From Squalus acanthias (Eukaryota): 64,000 nucleotides of DNA. Positions 3,341-64,000 of the stretch are shown one piece after another (positions within the stretch are counted from its first letter, which is position 1; each line of letters opens with the position of its first letter). The notes below the pieces were generated by a model, which had not been told where the DNA came from, did no database searches, and saw nothing but the letters and a program-made list of their open reading frames with translations. Both the position numbers and the translations under genes were made by a program. The stretch spans positions 992,001 through 1,056,000 of the forward strand of contig JASTWF010000069.1 of the NCBI GenBank assembly GCA_030390025.1. The letters are read 5' to 3'.

Positions 3341-3616
3341 ATCCACCCAAGGAGACGACAGTGGCCATCAGCGGAGCCACGGGCGGAATAAGAGAGGGAA
3401 GCAACATCACGTTAACCTGCTCCAGCGAAAGCGTCCCCCCGGCATCGAGTTACACCTGGTTCAGGATCGACGGAGACACGATCACCCAGTTAAACACAAG
3501 TGCTCGGTCCATCTACTTCAGACACGTAACACGGGAGGATGATGCCGGTTTCTACTGCACAGCGAGGAACCCATTGGGTATCGGCAGGTCCACCATTGTA
3601 CACCTGTGTGTGGAAT
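3341..3616 (+). CDS. Siglec-like gene A, C2/I-set Ig exon 2
   Basis: TTCCAG|ATCC acceptor, GAAT|GTAAGT donor, phase 1-1. YPPKETTVAISG...EGSNITLTCSSESVPPASSYTWF...DAGFYCTARNPLG is a canonical Ig domain. Confidence 0.9.
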
Positions 3617-4870: not shown

Positions 4871-5544
4871 AAAATAAAATTTACAGGACAGAAATTATTT
4901 TGTGATTCACGTGAGATGGTGTGTGTACGTGAGAAGTGAGCTGGATCAAGTCATTTCCCTCAAGCCTGTGATCGCTCCCTGAGTAAAGATGACTTGATTC
5001 GCGCAGTGCACTGTACTGGCTACTTCATCTCACCCCATCAACACATCCTTCTATTCCTTTCTCCCTCGTGTGTTTATCCAGCTTCCCCTTAAATGCATCG
5101 CTGCGATTCGCCGCAACCACTCCCTGCGGTGGCGGGTTCCACATTCTCCCCACTCTCTGGGTAACGAGCAGAAGTGATTATTAAGCGGGGCGTGTAACGG
5201 GAGTCCGATCCGATAGCGCCCCAACTGCACAACTGCCCGTCATGAATTTTCACCCTGTGATAAATGTTTCCAGATCATTCTACAGCACAACCCTGCACAC
5301 GTCAATAGATCAGGACCTTGGACAGGGTGTAAAACAGTCCACTAACGCCAGCGTTCCACCCTGAGGAGCGAGTTACAATTGCTCCCTCTCACAGTGTTTG
5401 CCATGAAATCATTCCTTACAGATGTTTTAGTCGATGTATGAATGTGACACCAAATATTCCAGTAATATTAAGCTTGATTGCTGATCGCACAGCGAGGGAT
5501 CGAAAGCGGAGAGTAAGTCATCGTTTCTTGCTGTATGTTTCCAG

Positions 5545-5714
5545 GCACTCTGCACACGATTCAGATCCTGGGAATACGAGCTGCGATATTCATTCTCGCC
5601 GTCATCGCCACTGTCACTGGGGTTCGCGTCTGGGACCGAAGACCAGCTAAAGGAAGCCGAGAGCCTGTTGAGAGCTGTGAGGATACGGGAGTCGATCGGG
5701 AATCAGCGGCCTGA
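5545..5714 (+). CDS. Siglec-like gene A, terminal exon: transmembrane helix with Arg plus short Tyr-free tail (activating type)
   Basis: TTTCCAG|GC acceptor; phase 1 matches the previous exon. Translation (C)TLHTIQILGIRAAIFILAVIATVTGVRVWDRRPAKGSREPVESCEDTGVDRESAA*, Arg codon at 5577-5579, TGA at 5712-5714. Confidence 0.82.
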
Positions 5715-20463: not shown

Positions 20464-20706
20464 TCACTGAAATCTGATCTCTGCGTATTCCGTTCCCTCG
20501 TCCTTGTCGACAGTCCCGTCGACGTTGGGCAGCTTTAAGAATTTGATGCTGGCGTACAGAAGGTCCTCATGCTTGGTGGGTTGTCCATGTCCAGCATCTC
20601 CTCCCGCCCGACCTTCAGAGAGACCCCGGGGAGCTGGTGTCTCCGCCTCGCTCGTTGCCTCACTGGTTACATTCCAGGAGTCAGGAACCATCCCGCACTG
20701 CGAACC
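20464..20706 (-). CDS. Siglec-like gene B, terminal exon with ITIM (LLYASI) and ITSM/ITIM-like motif (TEYAEI)
   Basis: TTTGTAG|GGT acceptor, phase 0. GSQCGMVPDS...HEDLLYASIKFLKL...DEGTEYAEIRFQ* has the same two-motif layout as CD33-related Siglec tails. Confidence 0.9.
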   Translation of the reverse strand, partial: GSQCGMVPDSWNVTSEATSEAETPAPRGLSEGRAGGDAGHGQPTKHEDLLYASIKFLKLPNVDGTVDKDEGTEYAEIRFQ

Positions 20707-20792
20707 CTACAAAGCAAATGGAAGCACAAGACATTCTCAGGTCATTTCCCGGGGCTGATGGGGTGAAATGATTGCACAGACTCACTAGTGTA

Positions 20793-20890
20793 AGTCGTGG
20801 CTCAGTGGGTTTAACACTCGCTCGCTCGTCTCTGAGACAGAAAGCCGTTGGTTCGAGTCCCCACTCCAGAGACTTGAGCCCCATAATTCA
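20793..20890 (+). mobile_element. tRNA-derived SINE head
   Basis: A-box TGGCTCAGTGG and B-box GGTTCGAGTCC, followed by CACTCCAGAGACTTGAGC SINE body. Confidence 0.75.
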
Positions 20891-20939
20891 CAAGCTCAGA
20901 ACATCCTGAAACGCTTCAAAGCCAATGAAATACTTCGTG

Positions 20940-22157
20940 ATGTTGGTTGAGTGATAAAAATTAGACCTTGACTCTGGGGAGAACTTCCCCTGCTCTTCGC
21001 AATATTAGCCATGGGATCTTCCATGTCAACCTTACAGGTTTAATGTCTCATCTGAAAAACTGCCCCTCCGATGGTGCAGCGCTCCCTCAGTACTGCCCCT
21101 CCGACAGTGCGGCACTCCCTCAGTACTGCCCCTCCGACAGTGTGGCGCTCCCTCAGTACTGCCCCTCCGACAGTGCGGCGCTCCCTCAGTACTGCCCCTC
21201 CGACAGTGCGGCCCTCCCTCAGTACTGCCCCTCCGAGAGTGCAGCGCTCCCTCAGTACTGCCCCGCCGACAGTGCGGTGCTCCCTCAATACTGCCCCTCC
21301 TACAGTGCGACGCTCCCTCAGTACTGCCCCTCCAACAGTGCGGCGCTCCCTCAGTACTGCCCCTCCGACAGTGCGGCGCTCTCTCAGTACTGCCCCTCCG
21401 ACAGTGCAGCTGTCCCTCCAACAGTACAGCGCTATCTCAGTACTACCCCTCCGACAATGCAGCCCTCCCTCAGTACAGCACCTCCGACAGTGCAGCGCTC
21501 CCTCAGTACTGCCCCTCTGACAGTGCAGCGCTCCCTCAGTACTGCCCCTCCGACATTGCGGCACTTCCTCAGTACAGTCCCTCCGACAGTGCGGCGCTCC
21601 CTCAGTACTGCCCCTCCGACAGTGTGGCGCTCCCTCAGTACTGCCCCGCCGACAGTGCGATGCTCCCTCAATACTGCCCCTCCTACAGTGCGACGCTCCC
21701 TCAGTACTGCCCTTCCAACAGTGCGGCGCTCCCTCAGTACTGCCCCTCCGACAGTGTGGCGCTCCCTCAGTACTGCCCCTCCGACAGTACGGCGCTCCCT
21801 CAGTACTGCCCCTCCGACAGTGCAGCGCTCCCTCAGTACTGCCCCTCTGAAAGTGCGGCGCTCCCTCAATACTGCCCCTCCTACAGTGCGACGCTCCCTC
21901 AGTACTGCCCCTCCGACAGTGCGGCCCTCCCTCAGTACTGCCCCTCCGACAGTGCAGCGCTCCCTCAGTACTACCCCTCAGACAGTGCGGCACTCCCTCA
22001 GTACTGCCCCTCAGACAGTGCGGCGCTCCCTCAGTACTGATACTGGGGAGTGTCGGCCTGGATTATGGGCTCAAGTCTCTGGAGTGGGGACTTGAACCCA
22101 CGACCTTCTGACTCAGAGTCGAGAGGGAGATTTGTAAACCCACTGAGCCACGACTGA
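20940..22157 (-). mobile_element. tRNA-derived SINE with an internal 33-bp minisatellite expansion (about 21060-22040)
   Basis: Pol III head at about 22070-22157 on the - strand (TGGCTCAGTGG, GGTTCAAGTCC); about 30 units of the 33-mer; SINE body resumes below 21060. Confidence 0.85.
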
Positions 22158-22261
22158 CATCTCGGGCAGAAATTCGTGGGCAACCTGTCTGGGAATCTCC
22201 AACACGTGTTGCCTACACCCTGAGATTGAGGCTTCAGACTAAGTGCAAACAGCTTCTGTAC

Positions 22262-22343
22262 CTGGTGCTTGGCGGAGAGTGGACTGGAGGTCATTGCAAT
22301 GTCACTGGGCTCTGAAGCTCTCTCCTCATTCGCTGCCTTTCTC
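22262..22343 (-). CDS. Siglec-like gene B, cytoplasmic exon 1
   Basis: TATTTCAG|G acceptor, CCAG|GTACAG donor; phase 2-0 fits both neighbours. RKAANEERASEPSDIAMTSSPLSAKHQ. Confidence 0.82.
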
Positions 22344-22814
22344 CTGAAATAGCAGAATATCACACTGCGGTTATATCTCAGAGTGTAACGTTACAGCAAC
22401 TACCGGACTGTCTCTTTAAATCGCTTCTGTCCACATACATAGAATCACACAGCATAGAAAGAGGCCATTTGGCCCTTTGTGCCTGTGCTGGCTTTTGAAA
22501 GAGCTCTCCAATTAGTCCCACTCTCCCCCCTGCTCTTTCCCCACAGCCCTGTGAATTTTTCCCCTTCAAGTATTTATCCAATTCCCCTTTTGAAAGTCTC
22601 TGTTGAATCTGCTTCCACCGCCCTTTCAGGCAGCGCATTCCTGATCACAACAGCTGGACACTGAGCCGTGAAAGGCGCACTCCAGGTCATAGCGGACGCA
22701 GGGACCGCTCACGGGGAGTGGCGTCTGCTGCTGAACCCGAGGGAAACAGTCACTGACTCAAGGAGAGATGATTGGAGTAAAGATTTAAAAATCCAATGAA
22801 ACCTTCGCACTTAC

Positions 22815-22911
22815 TTTCGCACGCACATAAAGATTACGAATCCAGCCAGTGCAACGCTCAGTGCGATCCCAGCAGCAAGCAATCCTACTCTCCATTCATT
22901 GCCGTCTCCAC
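22815..22911 (-). CDS. Siglec-like gene B, transmembrane exon (uncharged helix)
   Basis: TTTTTCCAG|GT acceptor, GAAA|GTAAGT donor, phase 1-2. GGDGNEWRVGLLAAGIALSVALAGFVIFMCVRK. Confidence 0.88.
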
Positions 22912-23404
22912 CTGGAAAAACTGCCAGCAATTCATTAATTTTTGGCCATTCATTATCAGGGTGTGAGCGTCGCTGGCAAGGCCATCCATAGTTCGACGGT
23001 GTAAGATTCTAAACACTGTAATTAAACCGCTGCTACCGTCTGGAGATCGAGGTTCAGAATGAATTGTGAATTGGTTACAGACAGATTCAAAATGTAGGAG
23101 GTGAGCATGTGTTCTTTGTTTGTGAAGACACAGAATGGTGGAAGTCAGCAGGGGGTCCCTTGCCTGGTGGTCAGTCTGGTCCTTAGTTTGTAAGGCCACA
23201 TGGACAGGAAGGAGAAACACCGGGTGAAGAGGAAGTCCCGCCCCCCCCACACACCTCACAGGAACATGAACGTGTCATGTGGGAGGAACGCCAATCAGGG
23301 AAGTGTTGGAGTGAAACTGACCTATCAGAGGTATGGCAGACAGTGATATACGACTGGGGGCCGGCAGAAAGGCCCGAGAAAGAGTGACCCAGAGGCGGGG
23401 AATT

Positions 23405-23685
23405 CAGAAGGACAAGGGCAGCAAGCGCATGGGAACACCACCACCTCCAAGTTCCCCTCCAAGTCACACACCATCCTGACTTAGAAGTATATCGGCGATC
23501 CTTCATCGTCTCTGGGTCAAAATCCTGGAACTGCCTACCTAACAGCACTGTGGGAGTACCTTCACCACACGGACTGCAGCGGTTCAAGAAGGCGGCTCAC
23601 CACCACCTTCTCAAGGGCAATTAGGGATGGGCAATAAATGCTGGCCTTGACAGCGACGCCCAGATCCCATAAACAAATTTAAAAA
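23405..23685 (+). mobile_element. 3' end of a second-family CR1-like LINE
   Basis: Matches 4595-4870. Confidence 0.8.
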
Positions 23686-24330
23686 TATATATCTATATCT
23701 ATATATATATATATATCAACCAATGTCACTAAAATAACAGATTATCTGGTCATTATCACATTGTTGTTTGTGGGAGCTTGCTGTGCGCAAAATGGAGGCC
23801 ATGTTTCCTGCATTACAACAGTGACTACACTGGTATGTCCTGTCCACAAACAGCAAGACAAATCCAATCCGGCCAATTACCGCCCCATCAGTCTACTCTC
23901 AATCATCAGCAAAGTGATGGAAGGTGTCATTGACAGTGCTATCAAGCGGCACTTACTCACCAATAACCTGCTCACCGATTCCCAGTTTGGGTTCCGCCAG
24001 GATCACTTGGCTCTCGACCTCATTATAGCCTTGGACCAAACATGGACAAAAGAGCTGAATTCCAGAGGGGAGGTGAGAGTGACTGCCCTTGACATCAAAG
24101 CAGTGTTTGACCGAGTGTGGCATCAAGGAGCCCCAGTTAAACTCAAGTCAATGGGAATCGGGGGGAAAACTCTCCACTGGCTGGAGTCATACCTAGCACA
24201 AAGGAAGATGGTTGTGGTTGTTGAAGTTCAATCATCACAGCCCCAGGACATCGCTGCAGGCATTCCTCAGGGCAGCGTCCTAGGCCCAACCATCTTCAGC
24301 TGCTTCATCAATGACCTTCCCTCCATCATA

Positions 24331-27300
24331 GATTCATAGTCATAGAGTCATAACGGCACAGAAGGAGGCCATTAGGCCCATCGAGTCCATGCTGGCTCTC
24401 TGTAGAGCAATCCAGTCCATCCCATTCCCCCGCTCTATCCCCGTAGCCTTGCAAGTTTATTTCCCTCAATTGCCTATCCAGTCTCCCCTTGAAAACATTG
24501 AGTGTCTCCGCTTCCACCACTTCCGTCGGCAGCGAGTTCCAGGTCCTCACCACTCGCTGCATATAAAGGTCTTTCCCCTGTATCTCTTGCCCAAAATCTT
24601 AAATCTGTGTTCCCTAGTCCTTGTACCATCAACTAGTGGGAACAGCCTTTCCCCGTCTAGCCTATCCAAACCCGTCATAATCTTGTACACCTCTATCAAA
24701 TCACCCCTCAACCTATTTTGCTCTGATGAAAACAAATCCAGCTTCTCTAACCTGTCCTTGTAGCTAAGATCCCCCATCCCCAGAACCATTCTGGTAAATC
24801 TCCTCTGCACCCTCTCAAGTGCCTTCACATCCTTCCTAAAGTGTGGTGACCAGAACGGGATGCAATACTCCAGTTGTGGCCTAACCAGCGCTTTATAAAG
24901 GTTCAGCATAACTTCTCTAATTTTGTACTCAATACCTCTATTTCTGAAGCCCAAGATCCGATATGCTTTGCTAACCACTCCCTCAATATGTCCCGCCACC
25001 TTCAGGGACGTATGCACATTAACTCCCAGGTCCGTCTGTCCCTGCACACGCTTTAAAACTGTGCCATTAAGTGTATATTGCCAATCCCTGTTCCTTCTGC
25101 CAAAATGCATCACCTCACACTTCTCTGTATTAAATTCCATCTGCCACATGTCTGCCCATTCTGCGAGCCTTTCTATGTCCTGTTGCAGTCGATTGGTATC
25201 ATCCTCACTGTTTGCCACTCCCCCAAGTTCGGTGTGGTCGGCAAATTTAGAAATTCTACTCTGTATTCCAATATCTAGATCATTTATATATATATTTTAA
25301 AAAAAAGCAGTGGCCCCAGCACTGACCCTTGGGGAACACCACTGTCTACCATCCTCCAGTCTGAAAAACAGCCATTTACCACAACTCGCTGTTTTCTGTC
25401 CTTAAGCCAATTTCTTATCCAGCTATTCCATGAGTCTCAATTGTTAACCAGCCTTCTATGTGGTACTTTGACAAACACCTTCCGAATACCGATGTAGACA
25501 ACATCCATTGCATTCCCTTCATCAATCATCCTTGCTACTTCATCAAAAAATTCAATTAAATTAGTCAAACACGATCTGCCTTTTACAAATCCGTGCTGGC
25601 TCTCCTTAATTAGCTTAAACCTCTCCAAGTGCCTGTTAATTTTTTCCTTGATTATTTTTTCTAAAACTTTACCCACCACTGATGTTAAACTGATTGGCCT
25701 GTAGTTACTAGGATTGTCCTTACACCCTTTCTTGAACAATGGTTTCACATTTGCCATTTTCAAATCCTCAGGCACCTCCCCCGCATCTATGGAAGATTGG
25801 AAAATTATGGCAAGCCCTTCCGCTATCTCCTCCCCCAATTCCCTTAGCAACCTGGGAAGCAAGCCATCTGGACCAGGCGACTTATCCACTCTAAGCATAC
25901 CCAGTCTTTCTAGTACTTCCTGTCTATCAATTTTCACCCCTTCCATTGCTGCTACCTTTTCCACTTCTACCGATATTTTGTCAGCATCCACCTCCTTAGT
26001 AAACACCGATACAAAGTACTCATTGAGTATTCTAGCCTTGCCCTGCGCCTCTAAGCATATATCACCTTCTTTTTCTCTAATAGGCCCCACCCCGCCTCTT
26101 ATTACCCGCTTACTGTTTACATGCCGGTAGAAGATTTTTGCGTTCCCTATTATGTTAACCGCCATTCTACTCTCATACTCTCTCTTTGCCAATCTTATTT
26201 TCATCTTCACTTCCCCTCTCAACTTATTGTATTTGGTCTGGTACTCCCTTGAAGAATTCACCTGACATGCACCATACACCCTCTTTTTTTGGTTCATCAT
26301 CTTCTCTACCTCCCTCGTCATCCAAGGAGTCCTTGCTTTGGTTCCCTTACCCTTCCCTCTTGTTTGAATGTATCTGGCCTGTACTTGGAACATCTCCTCC
26401 TTAAAGATCACCCATTGTTCTGTTACATTTCTTCCTGTCAGTCTTTGGTTCCATTTTACCCTGGCTAGATCCTTTCGCATCCCATTGAAGTTAGCCCTAT
26501 TCCAGTTTAGAAGTTCCACTCTAGATTGTTCCTTGCTCCTCTCCATTGCTGATCTAAACCTTATGATACGATGATCACTCGTACCCAAGTGTTCTCCCAC
26601 AGACACTTGGTCGACCTGGCCCACCTCATTCCCCAGCACCAGATCCAGCAATGCCTCCTTCCTAGTTGGGCCAAGAACATACTGGTCAAGGAAATTTTCC
26701 TGAACACATTTCAGAAATTCCTCCCCTCCTTTCCCTTTACCCTAGCATTATCCCATTCGATATTTGGGTCATTAAAGTCCTCCAATATCACCACTCATAG
26801 CTTTTGCATATCTCTGCGATTTCCATGCAGATTTGCTCCTCTACCCCCCTCTCACTATTTGGAGGCCTATAGAATACCCACAATAGCGTGATCATACCCT
26901 TTTTGCTCCTCAACTCTAACCAAATGGATTCTGTCCTTGTCCCCTCAAGAACATCCTCCCTTTCCAACACTACAATGTCTTCCTTAATCAGCACTGCCAC
27001 CCCACCTCCCTTTTTTCCTTCCCTATCTTTTATGAACACCTTGTACCCTTGAATATTAAGTGCCCAGTCCTCACCGTTTTTAAGCCACGTTTCCATTATT
27101 GACATAACATCATATTGCCACACGGCTAATTGTGCTTGTCGCTCACCAACCTTATTCACCACACTTTGTGCGTTTACGTACATGCATTCTAAACTCATTT
27201 TTTGAATTTTTCGTAGTCTTTCTTAGTTTGCTCCTATCTAATATGGTACTACTTCCGCCTCTAGAAGTATTTCCTTCTCTAGTACTCTCCAACACACTCA

Positions 27301-27355
27301 CTCTTTTATGCACCTTATTCCTCTTTTCTACTCCTATATGCTGGTCAGAGGTTTT
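24331..27355 (-). mobile_element. CR1 LINE with degenerate ORF2 (APE + RT)
   Basis: ORFs 26788-27198 (endonuclease), 25437-26651 and 24547-25218; tail at about 24331-24350. Confidence 0.93.
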
Positions 27356-27590
27356 CATAAGATCAGAAGTGGGGATGTTCGCTGATGACTGCACAGTGTT
27401 CAGCACCATTCGCAACTCTTCAGATAATGAAGCAGTCTGTGCCTGAATGCAGCAAGACCTGGACGACATTCAGGCTTGGGCTGACAAGCGGCAAGTAAAA
27501 TTCGCGCCACACAATCGCTGTGTACCATCTACAAGATGCACTGCAGCAACTCGCCAAGACTTCTTCGACAGCACCTCCCAAACCCGCGAC

Positions 27591-29407
27591 AAACAGGGGG
27601 CTATAGGGGGAGAGGAGCTAAACACGATCAAAATCACTAAGGAAGTGGTACTCGGTAAAATAATGGGACTCAAGGCGGATAAATCACCTGGACCTGATGG
27701 CTTACATCCTAGAGTCTTGAAGGAAGTGGCGGTAGGGATTGTAGATGCATTGGTAATAATTTTTCAAAACTCCCTGGATTCCGCTAAGGTCCCGGCAGAC
27801 TGGAAAACTGCTAATGTAACACCCTTATTTAAAAAGGGCAGTAGACAGAATGCTGGTAACTATAGACCAGTTAGCCTAACATCTGTGGTAGGTAAAATTT
27901 TGGAGTCCATTATTAAGGAAACAGTAACAGGACATTTGGATAATCATAATTTAATAGGACAAAGTCAGCATGGTTTTACGAAGGGGAAGTCATGTTTGAC
28001 AAATTTGCTGGAGTTCTTTGAGGAAGTAACATATAGAGTGGATAAAGGGGAACCAGTAGACGTAGTGTATTTAGACTTCCAAAAGGCATTTGACAAGGTG
28101 CCACACAAAAGATTATTGCTTAAGGTAAAAAATCACGGTATTGGGGGTAATATTCTGGCATGGATAGAGGATTGGCTATCTAACAGAAAGCAAAGAGTTG
28201 GGATAAATGGTTCATTCTCAGACTGGCAATCAGTAACTAGTGGTGTTCCACAGGGGTCAGTGCTGGGTCCCCAACTCTTTACAATCTATATTAACGATTT
28301 GGAGGAAGGGACCAAGTGTAACATATCAAAATTTGCAGATGATACTAAGATGGGAGGGAAAGCAGTGAGTGAGGAGGACATAAAAAACCTGCAAGGGGAC
28401 ATAGACAGGCTAAGTAAGTGGGCAGAGATTTGGCAGATGGAATACAACACTGGAAAGTGTGAGGTGATGCACTTTGGCAGGAAAAATCCTAGAGCAATTT
28501 ATTATCTTACTGGCAAGAAACTGGAGAGTACTGAAGTGCAAAGGGATCTGGGGGTCCTGGTGCACGAAACTCAAAAGGTTAGTATGCAGGTGCAGCAAGT
28601 GATTAAGAAGGCAAATGGAATGTTGGCTTTCATTGCTAGGGGGATAGAATATAAAAATAGGGAGGTATTGCTTCAGTTGTACAAGGTATTGGTGAGACTG
28701 CACCTGGAATACTGCATACAATTTTGGTGTCCTTACTTAAGGAAAGACATCCTTGCTCTCGAGGCAGTGCAAAAAAGGTTCACTCGGTTAATCCCGGGGA
28801 TGAGGGGGTGGTCATATGAGGAGAGGTTGCGCAGATTGGGACTCTACTCATTGGAGTTCAGAAGAATGAGAGGAGATCTTATTGAAACATATAAGATTGT
28901 GAAGGGGTTGGATCGGGTGGATGCGGGGAGGATGTTCCCGATGACGGGTGAGACTAGAACTAGGGGACATAGTCTTAGAATAAGGGGCTGCTCTTTCAAA
29001 ACTGAGATGAGGAGGAACTACTTCACTCAGAGGGTGGTAGGTCCATGGAATATGCTGCCACAAAAAGCTGTAGAAGCTACATCATTAAATAAATTTAAAA
29101 CAGAAATAGACAGTTTCCTAGAAGTAAAGGGCATTAAGGGTTACAGGGAGCGGGCAGGAATTTGGACATGAGTCTAGGTTCGGATCGGTCATGGCCCTGT
29201 GGGTAGTGGAGCGGGCCCAGGGACCGTGTAGCCTGATTCTGCTCCTATTTCGTGTGTGCAATTCTGTTAGATGCAGGAGATGGTTCTGTGATAGTAGATA
29301 GTAGATTGGCGGTTAGGATCAGATCAGCCATGATCTTATTGAATGGCGGAGCAGGCTCGAGGGGCCGATTGGCCTACTCCTGCTCCTATTTCTTATGTTC
29401 TTATGTT
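27591..29407 (+). mobile_element. Young 5'-truncated CR1 LINE with an uninterrupted RT region
   Basis: ORF 27447-29171 is open through RT and the C-terminus; TTCTTATG tail repeats at about 29390-29407. Confidence 0.93.
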
Positions 29408-29744
29408 CTCTACCACCTAGAAGGACAAGGGCACCAGGTGCATGCGAACACCACCACCTTCTCAAGGGCAATTAGGGATGGACAATAAATGCTGGCCTTG
29501 CCAGCAACGCCCACATGACAGGAATGAATAATTAAAAGAATGCACTTCAAAAGTACTTCATTGGCTGTAAAGCACTGAGGGACTACATAAGCGTTACATA
29601 AAGGCAATTCTTCACATTCTATGAAATATCTATATGTGTAATATTTATAAGTGTAATATCTAAAGATGCAATATTAATTGACCTCCAGTTTCTCCCTATC
29701 TACTCTCTCAAAACCCCTCATTTTGAACGCCTCTATTAAATATC

Positions 29745-30030
29745 CTGTTAACCTTCTCTGCTCTAAGGAGAACCTCCCCAGCTTCTCCAGTCTCTCCACA
29801 TCACTGAAGTCCCTCATCCCTGGTACCATTCTGGACAATCTGCTCTTAACCTTCTCTGCTCCAAGGAGAACAACCCCAGCTTCTCTAGTCTCCCCACGTC
29901 ACTGAAGTCCCTCATCCCTGGTACCATTCTGGTCAATCTCCCCTTAACCTTCTCTGCTCTCAGGAGAACAACCCCAGCTTCTCCAGTCTCTCCACATCAC
30001 TGAAGTCTCTCATCCCTGGGACCATTCTGC
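29745..30030. repeat. Three tandem copies of a 98-bp CR1-derived unit
   Basis: TTAACCTTCTCTGCTC...CTGGTACCATTCTG at about 29748, 29846 and 29944. Confidence 0.85.
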
Positions 30031-30120
30031 AATGTTTGTGCAGTTCTGCCTGATGCAACAACCAGCTGTATTGTATCAGACAACAACAACCAGCTTGTAT
30101 TTAGAGAGATGTGGAAGTAC

Positions 30121-30414
30121 CTGCAGACTCATGTTCCACAGTGATGGTTATGGTCCACTCCACTGCTCCATGTCCATTCTCCGCCACACACTGATAGTCT
30201 CCAGCGACCCTGGGTGTAACGTGAGGAATCTCCAACCACAGCTCATTGTTGGAACTTGTTCTGTTCAGTGTGACACCATGATGTCGCCAGGTCAGGTTAG
30301 AAGCCGGGAAGCTCGCGACAGAGCAGAGTATCGCTGTAGAATTCCCTTCTTTTATATGGATCAATGAATTTTTAATCGCATCACGAGAAGTAATGGAGAG
30401 ATTCCGTGGGGCGT
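30121..30414 (-). CDS. Siglec-like gene B, membrane-proximal Ig exon
   Basis: CTTTAG|AC acceptor. YAPRNLSI...EGNSTAILCSVASFPASNLTW...AGDYQCVAENGHG...ITVEHESA. Donor GCAG|GTACTT keeps phase 1. Confidence 0.85.
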
Positions 30415-30549
30415 CTAAAGACAAATTAAGATCAGTTAACGTACATCGGCTGTGAAGCACTTTGAGAGACCCTGAGAATGTCAAAGGTGTGATATCAAAG
30501 CAAGTTCCTTCATCACAAAGCACGTAATCCAAGCAGACACTTTGGTGCA

Positions 30550-31133
30550 GCACTGAGGGAGCGCCACACTGTCGGAGGGGCATTACTGTGGGAGCGCCGC
30601 ACTGTCGATGGGGCAGTACTGAGGGAGCGCCGCACTGTCGGAGGGGCAGTACTGAGGGAGCGCTGCACTGTCGGAGGGGCAGTACTGAGGGAGCGCCGCA
30701 CTGTCGATGTGGCAGTACTGAGGGAGCGCCGCACTGTCGGAGGGGCAGTACTGAGGGAGCGCTGCACTGTCAGAGGGTCAGTACTGAGGGAGCACCGCAC
30801 TGTTGGAGGGGCAGTACTGAGGGAGCACTGCACTGTCAGATGGGCGGTTCTGTGGGAGCGCTGCTCTGTCGGAGGGGCATTACTGAGGGAGTGCCGCACT
30901 GTCGAAGGGGCATTAGTGAGGGAGCACTGTACTGTCGGAGGGGCAGTACTGAGGAAGCGCCGCACTGATGGAGGGGCAGTACACAGCGAGCACGGCGCTG
31001 TCGGAGGGGCAGTACTGAGGGAGCGCCGCACTGTCAGAGGGGCAGTACTGAGGGAGCGCCGCACTGTCTGAGAGGCAGTACTGAGGGAGCGCAGCACTGC
31101 TGGAGGGGCAGTACTGAGGGAGTGCCGCACTGT
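30550..31133 (-). repeat. 33-bp minisatellite (paralogous to 2079-2800)
   Basis: About 18 units in the same intron position as in gene A. Confidence 0.95.
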
Positions 31134-31157
31134 AGAATTAAGGATGTCCGTACTTAC

Positions 31158-31451
31158 ATTGCAAAGTGACTGCGAGGGTCTGCTCCGATGAAACAGATGG
31201 ATATCTGACTCTGCAGGTGAGAGTTTGTCCATGGTGTTTGAGTGATGGGATCAGGGACAGAACAGAAGTATATGTCAGAGTGACGCCATGCTGAGTTACA
31301 CTGTTTGAGACTGACCCGGGTACGTCAGTGTGATTGACCCAGGTTAAGACAGGTGCTGTTCCAGTGCACGTGGTGTTGAAGGTGCAGCTTACGTTCACAC
31401 GCTTTCCTGCAATCATTTCAGCAGGGAATATCCTGGGTTTATCTGTGAAAT
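31158..31451 (-). CDS. Siglec-like gene B, C2-set exon (proximal copy)
   Basis: Within ORF 31138-31458; phase 1-1; about 97% aa identity to the other two C2 exons. Confidence 0.92.
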
Positions 31452-32811
31452 CTAACACACAGAGAATGGATCCTTTTAGATAAATATAACGTGAGGCATC
31501 AGTTCAAATAGAAATCACAGTCCCGCAAGAGAAAGTACTTTTACACGGATAATACCAGAACTGAGAGATTACAACGATCAGGAAAGGCTGAACAGGCTGG
31601 GGCTCTTTTCTCTAGAAAAGAGAAGGCTGAGGGGTGACCTGATAAAGGTCGATAAAATTATGAAGGGTTTCGATAGGGTAGACGTAGAGACGATGTTTCC
31701 ACTTGTGGGGCAGACCAGAACTAGGGGCCGTCAATATAAGATATTCACTGATAAATCCAATTGGGAATTCAGGAGAAACTTCTTTACCCAGAGAGTGGTG
31801 AGAATGGGGAACTCGCTACCACAGGGAGTGGTTGAGGCGAAGAGCAGAGATGCATTTAAGGGGAAGCTGGATAAACACATGAGGGAGAAAGGAATAGAAG
31901 GATATGTTGATGGGGTGAGATGAAGAGGGGTGGGAGGAGGCTGATGTGGAGCATAAACACAGGGATGGACCAGTTGTGCTGAATGGCCTCTTTCTGTGCG
32001 TCAGACTCGATGTAACTTTGTGTGAATCTGTAAGAAGATATTGTTTCCTATTTCCAGTATTGGCAGAGTGTCTGTCACTGAGCTTAATACACTTTCTCTC
32101 CGAGACCCTTGAATTGACAATACTGGGTGGGGGTGGAGGACCTGGTCACAGCCCCAGGAACACTGGCTCTCCACTCGCTCAGAGATCTCCGCCAATGTTA
32201 AATTAAATCCTCTCCAGGGCAGGACAGAAACAAGTTGGAATTATCCCTCAACCAACATTTAAAAGAAAGACTTGCATTCCTACAGCGCATTTCATGACCT
32301 CAGGACATCCCAAAGCGCTTCACAGCCAATGAAGTACTTTTGAAGTGTTAAACCAGATGATCTGGTCATTATCACATTGCTGTTTGTGGGAGCTTGCTGT
32401 GCACAAATTGGCTGCCACGTTTCCTACATTACAACAGTGACCAGAATTCAAAAAAAGTGCTTCATTGGCTGTGAAGCGCTTTGGGAACTCCTGAGGTGGT
32501 GAAAGGTGCTGGAGAAATGTGAGTCTGTCTTTTGTCTGTATGTAAGACTTTTAAACACGATTAGAGAGATAGATGGGAGTCGATAACCTGATAACAATGA
32601 TGGACACAGTCAAGACATTCAATCATTGATAATAAAGTGAGTATTAGAGGTTGCTTTAGGACTGAACTGGAAGGTATCGCCAGGTTATTGATAATCAGAC
32701 GCTGTGTTATAATAAGCTGTGTTTTGTGTTAATGTGTAACCGCCACAGTTTATGTTATTTCCCACTGACTGTTGAGCGTGAATTGTGGAGTAATTATAAC
32801 CCAGCACTTAC

Positions 32812-33177
32812 CAGAAACATGAAGCTGTGTTACAGGGCAGTAGTATAACTGATCACTGTTGTTAAATTCTATTCTGAAATAATAAGGTCCTGCGTCTCGC
32901 TGTGTGATGTTGTTTATAATCAGGGAACAGTCACCATCTCTCAGGTCTCCAGACAGCCGGGTCCGATGGCGAAACTGTGGCGACTCATGATTGTGATCCT
33001 TGGAGTGAAAGGCTATAGGCGATGAACTCTGTTCGTCATAATTATACCAGATTCCAACTTGTGGTTGGTTTGCCAGACGCGATGGAAAAGTGTAATGACA
33101 TGGAATCTGTGCACACAAACCTTCCTGTGCTGTCACCTCTCGTGGAGTCTCGCCTTTCCACTCCTCTGACAATACAG
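32812..33177 (-). CDS. Siglec-like gene B, V-set exon (proximal copy, V2)
   Basis: Within ORF 32750-33196; intact AG/GT sites, 366 nt. GLCAQIPCHY, DCSL and GPYYFRIE (essential Arg) are present. Confidence 0.92.
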
Positions 33178-40881: not shown

Positions 40882-41175
40882 ATTGCAAAGTGAGTGCGAG
40901 GGTGTGCTCCGATGAAACAGATGGATATCTGACTCTGCAGGTGAGAGTTTGTCCGTGGTGTTTGAGTGATGGAATCAGGGACAGAACAGAAGTATATGTC
41001 AGAGTGACGCCATGCTGAGTTACACTGTTTGAGACTGACCCGGGTACGTCAGTGGGATTGACCCAGGTTAAGACAGGTGCTGTTCCAGTGCACGTGGTGT
41101 TGAAGGTGCAGCTTACGTTCACACGCTTTCCTGCAATCATTTCAGCAGGGAATATCCTGGGTTTATCTGTGAAAT
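40882..41175 (-). CDS. Siglec-like gene B, C2-set exon (distal copy)
   Basis: Within ORF 40862-41182; same splice sites as 1555-1848; 2 aa differences from the gene A copy. Confidence 0.9.
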
Positions 41176-41340
41176 CTAACACACAGAGAATGGATCCTTT
41201 TAGATAAATATAACGTGAGGCATCAGTTCAAATAGAAATCACAGTCCCGCAAGAGAAAGTACTTTTACAAGGATAACACCAGAACTGAGAGGTTACAAGG
41301 ATTAGGAATGATTGAACAGGCTGGGGCTCTTTTCTCCAGA

Positions 41341-41768
41341 ACACGGTGGCATAGTGGTTAGCACTGGTGCTTCACAGTGCCAGGGACCCGGGTTCGAATC
41401 TGACCTCGGGTATCTGTCTGTGTGGAGTTTGCACATTCTCCCCGTGTCTGCGTGGGTTTTCTCCGGGTGCTCCGGTTTCCTCCCACAGTCCAAAAATGTG
41501 TAGGTTAGGTTGGTTTGGCTGTGATAAATTAACCCTTAGTGTTAGGAGGGGATTAAATATGTGGGGTTATGGGGATAGGATGGGCTATGTTAGGGGGAAT
41601 TAAATACGTGGGGATAGGGTGGGATAGGTGCAGGCTCGATGTGGGGATTCTGTGTGAGAAAGCAGCGACAGGGTACTGGATTTGGATGATCAGCCATGAT
41701 CATATTGACTGGTGGAGCAGGCTTGACGGGCCGAATGGCCTACTCCTGCTGCTAGTTTCTATGTTTCT
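41341..41768 (+). mobile_element. V-SINE (HE1-like) insertion specific to the distal V-C2 copy
   Basis: tRNA head GGTGGCATAGTGGTTAGCAC...GGTTCGAATC; V-domain GTGTGGAGTTTGCACATTCTCCCCGTGTCTGCGTGGGTTT; CR1-type tail; the site is empty at about 1390 and about 31615. Confidence 0.85.
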
Positions 41769-42799
41769 AAAAGAGAAGCCTGAGGGGTGACCTGATAGAG
41801 GTCTTTAAAATTATGAAGGGGTTCGATAGGGTAGACGTAGAGAAGATGTTTCCACTTGTGGGGGAGACCAGAACTAGGGGCCGTCAATATAAGATATTCA
41901 CTGATAAATCCAATCGATAATTGAGGAGAAACTTCTTTCCCCAGAGAGTGGTGAGAATGGGGAACTCGCTACCACAGGGAGTGGTTGAGGCGAATAGCAG
42001 AGATACATTTCAGGGGAAGAAGGAAAAACACATGAGGGAGAAAGGAATAGAAGGATATGAAGAGGGGTGGGAGGAGGCTGGTGTGGAGCAGAAACACCGG
42101 GATGGACCAGTTGTGCTGAATGGCCTCTTTCTGTGTGGTATACTCGATGTAACTTTGTGTGAATCTCTAAGAAGAAATTGTTTCCTATTTCCAGGGTTTG
42201 CGGAGTGTCTGTCACTGAGCTTAATGCACTTTCTCTCAACCAACACTTAAAAGAAAGACTTGCATTCCTACAGCGCATTTCATGACCTCAGGACGACCCA
42301 AAGTGCTTCACAGCCAATGAAATACTTTTGATGTGTTAAACCAGATGATCTGGTCATTATCACATTGCTGTTTGTGGGAGCTTGCTGTGCACAAATTGGC
42401 TGTCACATTTCCTACATTACAACAGTGACCACACTTCAAAAAAAGAACTTCATTGTCTGTGAAGCGCTTTGGAACCTCCTGAGGTGGTGAAAGGTGTTGG
42501 AGAAATGTGAGTCTGTCTTTTGTCTGTATGTAAGACTTTTAAACACGATTAGAGAGATAGATGGGAGTCGTTAACCTGATAACAATGATGGACACAGTCA
42601 AGACATTCAATCATTGATAATAAAGTGAGTATTAGAGGTTGCTTTAGGACTGAACTGGAAGGTATCGCCAGGTTATTGATAATCAGACGCTGTGTTATAA
42701 TAAGCTGTGTTTTGTGTTAATGTGTAACCGCCACAGTTTATGTTATTTCCCACTGACTGTTGATTGTGAATTGTGGAGTAATTATAACCCAGCACTTAC

Positions 42800-43165
42800 C
42801 AGAAACATGAAGCTGTGTTACAGGCCAGTAGTTATACGGATCACTGTTGTCAAATTCTATTCTGAAATTATAAGGTCCTGCGTCTCGCTGTGTGATGTTG
42901 TTTATAATCAGGGAACAGTCACCATCTCTCAGGTCTCCAGACAGCCGGGTCCGATGGCGAAACTGTGACAACTCACGATCGTGATCCTTGGAGTGAAAGG
43001 CTATAGACCATGAGCTCCATTTCACATTATTAAACCAGACTCCAACTCGCGGTTGGTTTGCCAGACGCGATGGATAAGTGTAATGACATGGAATCTGTGC
43101 ACACAAACCTTCCTGTGCTGTCACCACTCGTGGTTTCTCGCCTTTCCACTCCTCTGACAATACAG
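42800..43165 (-). CDS. Siglec-like gene B, V-set exon (distal copy, V1)
   Basis: CTCCCAG|CT acceptor, TCTG|GTAAGT donor, 366 nt, phase 1-1. AVLSEEWKGEKPRVVTAQEGLCAQIPCHY...DCSL...GPYNFRIE...TQLHVS has the CD33-like GLCxxxPC motif and the essential Arg. Confidence 0.92.
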
Positions 43166-60514: not shown

Positions 60515-63500
60515 TGTAGAATTCGCAATATATCGCGATTTTATAAATAAGGAGAAAACACATAGTTTCGTTCAAACAGCTTTATTTCAGCAGAATGCTG
60601 TCAGGTTTTCAAAGTGGACACAAGCAGCCTGTAAAATGGCCGCCACGTGAAAGGCAGACAGAAATAAATGGTAAAAGGGTGAGGAACAAAAAACAAAGGG
60701 CCAAACTAATTCATAAAAAATGTGAGCATAAAAAAAGCCTGAGGGTTTTATACCTTAATGCGAGAAGCATCAGGAACAAGGTAGATGAATTAGCTGTGGA
60801 AATAGAGGTTAATAATTATGATCTAATTGGGATTACGGAAACATGGTTGCAGGGTGAGCAGGGCTGGGAGCTTAACATACAGGGGTATTCAGTATTTAGG
60901 AAGGATCGACAAAAAAGAAAGGGAGGAGGGGTAGCATTGCTGGTAAAAGAAGGGATAAATGCAATTGAAAGGAAGGATATTAACTCAGTTAATACAGAAT
61001 CTATATGGGTGGAGCTAAGAAATAGCGAGGGGCGAAAAACATTAATAGGAGTGGTATATAGGCCTCCAAATAGTAAAATAGAGGTTGGGGAGGGCATCAC
61101 GAGGGAAATTAGAGAAGCGTGCAATAAGAGCACAGCTGTCATCATAGGTGACTTTAACTTACATATAGATTGGAATAGCCTAATCAGTAAAAATAATGAG
61201 GAGGAGGAATTCCTTGAGTGTTTAAGGGATGGTTATCTGGATCAATATGTCGAGGAACCAACTCGGGAACAGGCTATATTGGACTGGGTACTGTGCAATG
61301 AGAAGGGACTAATTAGTAATCTTGTTGTACGGGGACCCTTGGGTCAGAGCGATCATAACATGATCGATTTCTCACTCGAAATGGAGAGCGAAGAAATTGA
61401 CTCAGATACTAAGGTCCTGAATTTAAACAAGGGGAATTATGATGCCATTAGACGGGAACTGAGTAGGTCTGATTGGACAACGTTCCTGGGAGGACTGGAG
61501 GTAGATAAACAATGGCAAGCATTTAAAGATAGAATGACAAAATTGCAAAAATTGTTTATACCAATCTGGCATAAAAGGAAATCTAAAAAGGTGACTCAAC
61601 CGTGGATAACAGGGGAAATTAGAGACAGCATAAAATCCAAAGATAGGGCGTATAAAATAGCCAAAAAAAGCGCCAGAGCGGAAGATTGGGAACAGTTTAA
61701 GATAGAGCAAAGGAGGACAAAGGGCTTAATCAAGAGGGGCAAAATAGCTTACGAAAGCAAGCTGGCGGAAAATATAAAAACTAACTCCAAAAGCTTTTAT
61801 AAGTATATCAAGAGGAAAAGACTGGTGAAAACCAAAGTTGGCCCATTGCAGTCAGATACGGGGGAATATATAACGGGAAATAAGGAAATGGCAGACCAAC
61901 TAAATGCATACTTTGGGTCAGTCTTTACGAAGGAAGACACAAAAAACCTCCCTGGGATATCGGGAAAAATAGGGACATTTGCAAAGGAGGAACTGACGCA
62001 AATCAATATCTCTAAGGATATGGTGTTAAGGAAGCTAAAGGGATTGAAGGCTGACAAATCCCCAGGGCCTGATAACATGCATCCTAGGGTGCTGAAGGAG
62101 GTGGCCCTAGAGATAGCGGATGCACTAAGTATGATTTTTCAGAATTCATTAGACTCGGGAACAGTGCCCATGGATTGGAGGGTAGCTAACGTTACCCCAC
62201 TATTCAAAAAGGGGGGTAGGGAAAAAGCAGGTAATTACAGACCTGTAAGCCTTACATCAGTTGTGGGCAAAATGCTGGAGTCCATCATTAAGGATGAAAT
62301 AGCGGAGCACTTAGCAAATGGGGACAGGATAGGACAGAGTCAACATGGATTTACAAAGGGTAAATCGTGCTTGACTAATCTATTGGAATTTTTTGAGGGA
62401 GTAACTGCTAAAATAGATGGGGGAGAGCCAGTAGATGTGGTGTACCTGGACTTCCAAAAGGCCTTCGATAAGGTCCCACATAAAAGATTAGCAGGGAAAA
62501 TTGAAGCTCATGGGATAAAGGGGAAAGTATTGACGTGGATAGAGAACTGGCTGTCAGATAGAAAACAGAGAGTTGGAATAAACGGCTCATTTTCTGAATG
62601 GCAGGCAGTAACAAGTGGTGTACCACAGGGATCTGTCCTGGGTCCCCAGCTGTTCACAATTTACATTAATGACCTGGATCAGGGAGTCGGATGCAGCATT
62701 TCCAAATTTGCAGACGACACTAAACTAGGAGTGGGGGTGGGCTCAGAGGAGGAGACCAGGAAGCTCCAGAGCGATTTGGACAGACTGGGTGATTGGGCGG
62801 ATAAATGGCAGATGCACTATAATGTGGACAAGTGCGAAGTTATCCACCTTGGGTGCAGGAACGGGAGGGCAAATTATTATTTAAATGGCAATAAATTGGG
62901 AGAGGGGGAAGTACAGAGAGACCTGGGTGTTCTTGTACATCAGTCACTGAAGGCGAGCATGCAGGTGCAACAGGCGGTCAAGAAGGCAAACGGTATGCTG
63001 GCCTTCATAGCAAAAGGGTTGGAATACAGGAACAGGGATACCTTGCTGCAGCTGTACAGGGCACTGGTGAGATCACACCTCGAGTACTGTGTACAGTTTT
63101 GGTCGCCTCATCTGAGGAAAGATGTTCTTGCCATGGAGGGGGTGCAGCGGCGATTCACCAGGCTGATACCAGGAATGGCGGGATTGACCTATGAGGAGAG
63201 ACTATGTAGTTTAGGGATGTACACACTGGAGTTTAGAAGATTGAGAGGGGACCTCATAGAAGTGTATAAAATTCTGACAGGTCTAGACAGACTAGATGCA
63301 GAAGGAATGTTTCCCTTGGCGGGTGAGAACAGAACTAGAGGACATAATTTAAGGATAAGGGCTAAACCATTTAGGACAGAAATGAGGGGGAATTTCTTCA
63401 CTCAGAGGGTGGTGAACCTGTGGAACTCATTGCCACAGAGGGCAGTGTACGCCAGCTCATTAAATATATTTAAGAGGGAATTAGATATATTTCTACAGGC

Positions 63501-64000
63501 AAAAGGGGTTAAGGATTACGGAGAGAAGGCGGGGACGGGATACTGAATTGGAGGATCAGCCATGATCTCATTAAATGGCGGAGCAGGCTCGAAGGGCTGG
63601 ATGGCCTACTCCTGCTCCTATCTTCTATGTATCTATGTAGAACATTCTAGACTTTTCGACAAGCAGACAAGATGGCGTTCCAATAAACATTTGTGCGAGA
63701 TCGATCAAGACTCAGTACATTTAAGATAATACACGAGACATCATGGGTTTGCAGTATACACATAAATACTGAAATCGGTCTCCCAGGTGCGAATAAGGGC
63801 TATTGTACCAAGTGATCAAGAACCCATCCAAAGACATTAATATGCAAAATCCCCACGACTCTACGATGAGAGAGCCGTTAGCGGGTAGTTACAGAAAACA
63901 TTTGGAAGCCCCAAAACCCCTCCAGGGAGAATACCGACCGGTTACACATTGGGAAAAGTATTAACAGGTACTCAGACAGTTACGAGTATCCCCGAAACCC
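60515..64000 (-). mobile_element. LTR-like element (runs out of the window), interrupted by a CR1
   Basis: Paralog similarity stops at TGTAGAATT; CTTTATT (AATAAA on the - strand) about 65 nt inside; unique sequence resumes after 63640. Confidence 0.55.
60595..63546 (+). CDS. CR1 LINE ORF2, uninterrupted (APE endonuclease + reverse transcriptase), 983 aa
   Basis: YLNARSIRNK, GITETWL, GDFN and SDH endonuclease motifs; [21 protein letters not shown] and FADD RT motifs; 3'UTR and tail to about 63640; ORF1 absent. Confidence 0.95.
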   Translation: MLSGFQSGHKQPVKWPPRERQTEINGKRVRNKKQRAKLIHKKCEHKKSLRVLYLNARSIRNKVDELAVEIEVNNYDLIGITETWLQGEQGWELNIQGYSVFRKDRQKRKGGGVALLVKEGINAIERKDINSVNTESIWVELRNSEGRKTLIGVVYRPPNSKIEVGEGITREIREACNKSTAVIIGDFNLHIDWNSLISKNNEEEEFLECLRDGYLDQYVEEPTREQAILDWVLCNEKGLISNLVVRGPLGQSDHNMIDFSLEMESEEIDSDTKVLNLNKGNYDAIRRELSRSDWTTFLGGLEVDKQWQAFKDRMTKLQKLFIPIWHKRKSKKVTQPWITGEIRDSIKSKDRAYKIAKKSARAEDWEQFKIEQRRTKGLIKRGKIAYESKLAENIKTNSKSFYKYIKRKRLVKTKVGPLQSDTGEYITGNKEMADQLNAYFGSVFTKEDTKNLPGISGKIGTFAKEELTQINISKDMVLRKLKGLKADKSPGPDNMHPRVLKEVALEIADALSMIFQNSLDSGTVPMDWRVANVTPLFKKGGREKAGNYRPVSLTSVVGKMLESIIKDEIAEHLANGDRIGQSQHGFTKGKSCLTNLLEFFEGVTAKIDGGEPVDVVYLDFQKAFDKVPHKRLAGKIEAHGIKGKVLTWIENWLSDRKQRVGINGSFSEWQAVTSGVPQGSVLGPQLFTIYINDLDQGVGCSISKFADDTKLGVGVGSEEETRKLQSDLDRLGDWADKWQMHYNVDKCEVIHLGCRNGRANYYLNGNKLGEGEVQRDLGVLVHQSLKASMQVQQAVKKANGMLAFIAKGLEYRNRDTLLQLYRALVRSHLEYCVQFWSPHLRKDVLAMEGVQRRFTRLIPGMAGLTYEERLCSLGMYTLEFRRLRGDLIEVYKILTGLDRLDAEGMFPLAGENRTRGHNLRIRAKPFRTEMRGNFFTQRVVNLWNSLPQRAVYASSLNIFKRELDIFLQAKGVKDYGEKAGTGY

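Follow-up and report, generated by a model that had tools for sequence, protein, structure and literature searches.

How the activating members of a shark Siglec cluster might signal, and whether their membrane segment belongs to Siglecs alone, are questions raised by a short exon at positions 5545-5714 (+) of the window, by which we mean the whole 64,000-nucleotide stretch of Squalus acanthias DNA analysed here. The initial annotation had read this exon as an activating transmembrane (TM) segment of the FcR-gamma-coupled kind, accompanied by juxtamembrane cysteines. We found it to be the last exon of a CD33-like Siglec gene with the layout V-C2-C2-TM and a tyrosine-free tail. The exon is of phase 1 and follows a pyrimidine-rich AG acceptor (5543-5544); its open frame and its 10 genomic copies give further support. 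Translation of the frame from 5547 gives TLHTIQILGIRAAIFILAVIATVTGVRVWDRR, followed by the tail (~25 residues) up to a TGA at 5712-5714, so that a short stalk leads into a hydrophobic helix containing a single Arg, then the motif WDRR, and last a tail without tyrosine. Kyte-Doolittle windows predict the helix at 5565-5633 (Ile7 to Trp29 of the exon frame, with a start possibly two residues earlier), and its Arg codon lies at 5577-5579. Upstream on the same strand are the membrane-proximal C2-type Ig exon (3341-3616, from homolog matches), the first C2-set exon (1555-1848, from translation and domain search), whose frame is open and whose extra Cys is expected to pair with the V domain, and the 3' part of a Siglec V-set exon (1-194, from paralog comparison) whose start falls ~170 bases ahead of the window. 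A leader exon is found ~4.5 kb ahead of the window, and its frame is open.

The identity of the gene as a Siglec was assessed mainly on an open paralog. The best PDB matches of its V exon were Siglec-5, MAG, and CD33, and the 112 longer proteins matching it all came from sharks and rays, most of them named Siglec-, CD33-, MAG-, CD22- or sialoadhesin-like. V-set and Ig_CD22 profiles scored over the cut-off in paralogs. The essential F-strand Arg sits in a YxFR motif that aligns with Siglec-5, and its codon is kept in the window copy (132-134 in the paralog frame). By translation, V and the first C2 have three Cys apiece, a pattern that fits the inter-domain bond of Siglecs. As a separate observation, the sialic-acid Arg is replaced by Lys in one open activating paralog (L022 7977-8350, -).

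Homolog comparison placed a second gene on the opposite strand of the window (20467-33177, -), of inhibitory type, with V, C2, and C2 exons, an uncharged TM (~22814-22920), and tail exons in which an ITIM and an ITIM-like motif occur. The V exons of this gene and of the activating gene agree at 348 of 364 aligned bases (96%). From sequence, the activating gene and the ITIM-type gene form a paired-receptor layout. Fish genomes are described, in a statement on teleosts, as being without inhibitory CD33-related Siglecs (PMC7226832); in contrast, the CD33-like cluster of sharks is large and includes both brake and accelerator forms. Another V exon with its C2 exon was seen at 40882-43165 (-), where no TM exon belonging to the pair was found; the pair may represent either a truncated copy or the front end of the inhibitory gene in a V-C2-V-C2 form.

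Since the V exon of the window gene is frameshifted as assembled, the receptor of this particular copy may not exist as a protein. The exon measures 364 bp vs. 366 bp in the paralogs and has two 1-base deletions, one near position 174 and the other, together with an in-frame stop, just before the window; as assembled, no reading frame is open from leader to TM. Elsewhere on the window contig, four paralogs have open V, C2, and TM exons, and in a fifth no V exon was seen in the stretch of DNA examined. One open paralog lies at G000:C3542, ~765500-770200. Both C17 copies carry a 17-base deletion in C2. We consider a real pseudogene and a consensus error to be about equally probable causes of the frameshift. 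A true pseudogene, with the window copy having died within a birth-and-death cluster and making no receptor, has in our judgement slightly less than an even chance. The two deletions and the stop speak for it, as do the other V exons: among 29 examined of the 40 listed, five were frameshifted and two more had stops. The three other exons of the gene are indel-free and a 999-codon frame stands open at 60547-63543 (+), which argues against a high general error rate. On the other hand, the five single-base indels that frameshift 3 of the 14 V exons of the window contig all lie at positions where the paralogs differ most (P~0.003 against random sites), as would be expected of consensus errors among near-identical copies, although indels linked to conversion are a possible alternative cause of the same pattern. 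The leader, splice sites, and remaining exons are intact, and skipping of the V exon, which is of phase 1-1, would keep the frame; both points also tell against a dead gene. At 97% likeness, the second deletion was covered by none of three deep sequencing runs, and the extra base was found in one shallow run, under another organism code and on a diverged copy; neither result decides between the two causes of the frameshift. Because the window copy is frameshifted, the mechanism proposed below applies best to the open-frame paralogs. The 999-codon frame itself looks like a LINE endonuclease/reverse transcriptase, which we presume from familiar motifs, and many broken copies of it occur elsewhere in the window.

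What can be followed through all copies is the TM exon. DNA and protein searches agreed on its 10 copies in the genome, six on the window contig and two each on contigs C17 and C26, and the Arg is kept in every one. The helix register was estimated by simple hydropathy on 12 TM sequences. In all 12, the Arg fell at position 5-8 of the best 21-residue window (0-8 with windows of 19 residues and 5-11 with 23) and was preceded by hydrophobic residues, and the closing Trp followed 18 residues after it in 10, as it does in the window copy. An activating-type TM with its Arg near the outer face, as first proposed, is thereby upheld, the Arg lying in the outer third of all 12 helices by the 21-residue estimate. 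Neither the Asn of the NxxR motif nor the central Lys of DAP12-type partners was found in these 12 sequences, all of which have Leu at R-3 and no Lys within the helix.

Protein searches extended this pattern to other sharks. The same Arg TM ends 7 of the 112 Siglec-like homologs; P0061 and P0064, which had been flagged by a regular expression, were removed from this count as their TMs are without the Arg motif. A profile built from five own-genome copies was run against 1.84 billion proteins and returned eight matches, every one a shark protein with the Arg: three CD33-like, two CD22-like, one single-V Siglec-like, and two SLAM-type proteins. No non-shark protein matched the module at E<=0.001 in this search, and matches from rays or bony vertebrates were likewise none, with the caveat that a 49-position profile run over 50% clusters could miss some. 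With the TM exon as a protein query, none of 29 candidates scored, the ESM Atlas gave no usable match, and the PDB gave none. The Arg does not vary between the three types of ectodomain, nor among the several orders of sharks represented. That its retention exceeds chance is indicated by the 10 of 10 genomic copies and by the exon's being more alike among distant copies than is the adjoining intron (figures below). The initial annotation had also warned that automated annotation could miss the exon since its frame is absent from the ORF track; this was only partly so, as the seven NCBI-named shark proteins do carry the TM, while a SLAM-like model from Heterodontus (P0119) holds the exon in a shifted frame.

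The two copies on C26 lie outside any Siglec gene. They belong to two tandem SLAM-like genes (L028 5247-9600 and L030 6205-9770; G000:C26, ~19.977-19.999 Mb), in both of which two V-like exons and a C2 exon precede an Arg TM exon whose stop follows after ~9 tail residues. No Siglec exon stands ahead of the TM exon there; the V exon lacks the usual Cys pair and is followed by a C2 exon of SLAM/CD2 type. Such a V domain without the usual disulfide, joined to a C2 with two Cys pairs, was found in the C26 genes and is a combination that we take to be a SLAM/CD2 family feature. Among 17 homologs of the C26 V exon, 16 were named SLAM-like and one was unnamed, and the Arg TM stood in frame at the end of two of the 17 (from Hemiscyllium and Scyliorhinus). 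SLAMF6 was among the four PDB matches of one homolog (P0123), behind CEA. The C26 genes and their homologs therefore resemble SLAM/CD2 receptors in their V and C2 ectodomain and differ from them in that the shark members end in an Arg TM and a very short tail, whereas mammalian SLAM/CD2 members signal through tyrosine motifs in the tail or have none.

As judged by sequence matches, then, the same exon is present behind CD33-like, CD22-like, and SLAM-like shark ectodomains, and has the appearance of a portable activating module. Identity between the exon and its distant copies is 81-82%, and the ~375 bp of intron ahead of it (5170-5544, +) aligns at 69-70% with the intron preceding the same exon in the C26 genes. 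Near-full-length matches to this piece of intron were found in six places of the genome, five ahead of a copy of the exon and one alone on C4, and 11 shorter matches included the two C17 copies. No TM or Ig exon was found at the C4 match (L072 8331-8812, G000:C4). Since the piece stands alone there, an old repeat of low copy number may account for part of the shared flank. The orphan stretch on C4 stops ~40 bases short of the acceptor. In a public model, P0003, intron sequence related to the stretch ahead of the exon has been translated as part of the protein. In a tree of 12 TMs (in which the first two residues of both C3542 rows are intron read-through), own-genome copies grouped together at 88/91 and a clade of SLAM-type TMs alone was not rejected (p-AU 0.076), a result compatible with one transfer or several and with either direction. 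We propose, tentatively and as something less than probable, that one TM exon has served as an activation cassette, moved perhaps repeatedly onto Siglecs of the CD33-like and CD22-like kinds as well as SLAM/CD2 receptors, and wiring all of them to FcR-gamma or CD3-zeta. If this is true, there would be an adaptor-coupled class of SLAM receptors and a class of activating Siglecs that do not use DAP12.

A moved TM module has precedents. Xenopus XFL TM1 is described as common to KIR-like receptors (PMC2413239), and macaque KIR are reported to have gained the TM of KIR2DL4 (PMC8102735). The latter case and the shark one are alike in an outer Arg, which in KIR2DL4 and the macaque activating KIR was gained by recombination with a switch of adaptor to FcR-gamma. 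They differ in reach: the KIR exchange took place within one family, and the shark exchange would span the Siglec and SLAM/CD2 families, on different contigs. CD89, GPVI, LILRA2, PIR-A, NKp46, OSCAR, and Xenopus XFL TM1 resemble the shark genes as described, with an Arg in the outer third and a single terminal exon for TM and short tail; the shark exon likewise comprises a TM and a short tail without tyrosine motif, as in the NxxR-type partners of FcR-gamma. That group also shares the placing of one TM type across different ectodomain families (PMC2413239), and differs in that the shark TM has no Asn at R-3 and no match outside sharks at the threshold used above. Thus, of the likeness first drawn to the FcR-gamma-coupled receptors FcalphaRI, GPVI, NKp46, and LILRA, the outer Arg holds, as it fits the position rule, and the NxxR motif is missing. 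TCR-alpha and NKp30 pair a TM Arg with the two Asp of zeta/gamma and are not known to require an Asn. The shark TM is like theirs in carrying the Arg in the top half (PMC13107469), a likeness of position only, given the PDB search without match. In primates, the pairs Siglec-5/14 and Siglec-11/16 are described as similarly built, a near-identical V-set being present on an ITIM gene and on a short-tailed gene with a charged TM. These pairs differ in using DAP12, and the shark TM exon extends beyond Siglecs; the likeness is one of layout. Literature searches, with subscription papers outside their coverage, returned nothing on shark or other cartilaginous fish Siglecs with DAP12, only the Xenopus paper on fish SLAM/CD2 receptors with a charged TM, and, on paired Siglec or SLAM receptors of sharks, none on topic by title among the matches listed. 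Related literature includes PMC2832619, PMC6288428, PMC6890642, PMC6829431, PMC9404585, PMC13233462, PMC3210942, and PMC8198044.

Which adaptor the module would use can be approached from the position of the Arg. An Arg near the top of the TM is reported to couple CD89, TCR-alpha, NKp30, and NKp46 to gamma/zeta, and DAP12-type partners are said in the same source to use mostly a central Lys, NKG2D having a central TM Arg with DAP10 (PMC13107469). KIR2DL4 and macaque KIR with an Arg at TM position 4 reportedly bind FcR-gamma and not DAP12 (PMC8102735). Searches of the shark genome gave two matches to TM exons of CD3-zeta-like and FcR-gamma-like type, each with an Asp, which lies at about position 6 in the latter. 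We assign one exon (on C5) to CD3-zeta and the other (on C1222) to FcR-gamma on the strength of motifs that we presume to be diagnostic. A DAP10 profile gave seven matches, none over the cut-off and none credible among the six translated, an ITAM profile gave two matches, neither credible, and a DAP12-like motif pattern gave none, these searches being too weak to establish absence. On balance, the Arg in the outer third is likely to couple to FcR-gamma or CD3-zeta; beside this, coupling to DAP12 or DAP10 is unlikely, and a receptor without an adaptor is the least likely of the three.

Gene anatomy, conservation, and distribution were demonstrated directly; from these we infer splicing, expression, adaptor binding, signalling, and the spread of the exon by recombination. 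The exon would be spliced to the last Ig exon, and in the ER its Arg would be neutralised by the two aspartates of a gamma-gamma or zeta-zeta dimer. Clustering by ligand could then lead to ITAM phosphorylation and to ITAM/Syk-family signalling. The near-identical V domain would see the ligands of the ITIM twin, for example sialylated microbes, and the module would turn the receptor that carries it into the activating partner of that twin. Taken as a whole, a shark-wide membrane-and-tail module, with an Arg pairing with the Asp pair of FcR-gamma or CD3-zeta and making its carrier the activating partner of an ITIM twin, seems to us the best explanation and a reasonably probable one. If the exon works in this manner, paired receptors of early jawed vertebrates may have been built by a single-exon swap between unrelated Ig families. 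The shark genome would also offer a clean test case for the Arg-position rule, since three ectodomains share a TM there and the two candidate adaptors have been identified alongside them.

Two other accounts of the Arg deserve weighing. The module could signal via DAP12 (or DAP10), as in mammalian Siglec-14, in which the charged TM residue is also an Arg near the outer end of the TM. Because Siglec-14 is reported to be a DAP12 user (PMC13358205, PMC4042635), the position of the Arg may not by itself decide the adaptor. Human Siglecs-14, -15, and -16 are described as partners of DAP12 through Lys or Arg, and the shark TM is without the NxxR motif said to be typical of the LILR/GPVI/CD89/XFL group (PMC2413239), which adds to the case for DAP12. 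We give this account a minor chance, since the position rule favours gamma/zeta, the DAP12 and DAP10 genes were not located by our (weak) searches, and the exon occurs on SLAM-like genes as well and so need not follow the habits of Siglecs. Still less probable is an Arg that sits at the surface of the membrane, or snorkels out to it, and binds no adaptor, the protein being a tail-less decoy or adhesion form. A 19-residue window does put the Arg at or near the edge of the helix in 2 of the 12 sequences, but the hydrophobic residues ahead of it in all 12, and its invariance over the ectodomain types and shark orders, are at odds with a surface position. We therefore retain pairing with FcR-gamma or CD3-zeta as the preferred reading.

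The cysteines fared less well. The initial annotation had placed VHLCVEC directly upstream of the TM and had suggested disulfide-linked dimers. VHLCVE does exist, but it lies outside 5545-5714, at the end of the second C2 exon (3598-3615, extra Cys codon 3607-3609) and 1.9 kb upstream of the TM exon. The second Cys spans the junction as a split codon, T(3616)|GC(5545-5546), whose first base is the last base of the C2 exon, and so depends on the predicted splice. As both Cys lack conservation beyond the Squalus acanthias genome, the case for disulfide dimers through these residues is poor, and we regard such dimers as rather unlikely. The Cys of VHLCVE, on the G-strand, gives way to Asn or Ser in every one of 10 homolog matches and is present in only two of the six copies on the window contig. 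The junction residue is Asp, Tyr or Leu, and never Cys, in all nine CD33-like proteins with the Arg TM from other sharks; for the C26 gene examined, Gly is predicted. It is Cys also in members with an uncharged TM, such as P0023 and P0064. In favour of dimers, the modelled splicing would give all six window-contig copies the junction Cys, which in the two-domain copies would lack a partner; the G-strand Cys stands in place of a polar residue and is thus likely exposed. Some mammalian Siglecs, moreover, form disulfide dimers. Dimers are accordingly possible in Squalus acanthias itself without being a conserved design. Overall, the two cysteines are probably local accidents, and they add little to the finding. 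The stalk next to the junction is ~24 bases shorter in the window-contig copies (window 5545-5560) than in the C17 and C26 copies (L009, L008), which would set the last Ig domain almost on the membrane. Also variable among the six local copies are a second Arg at the inner edge of the TM (5625-5627), which is Gly in two of them, and the tail, which occurs in three lengths owing to small indels near the stop (5685-5714).
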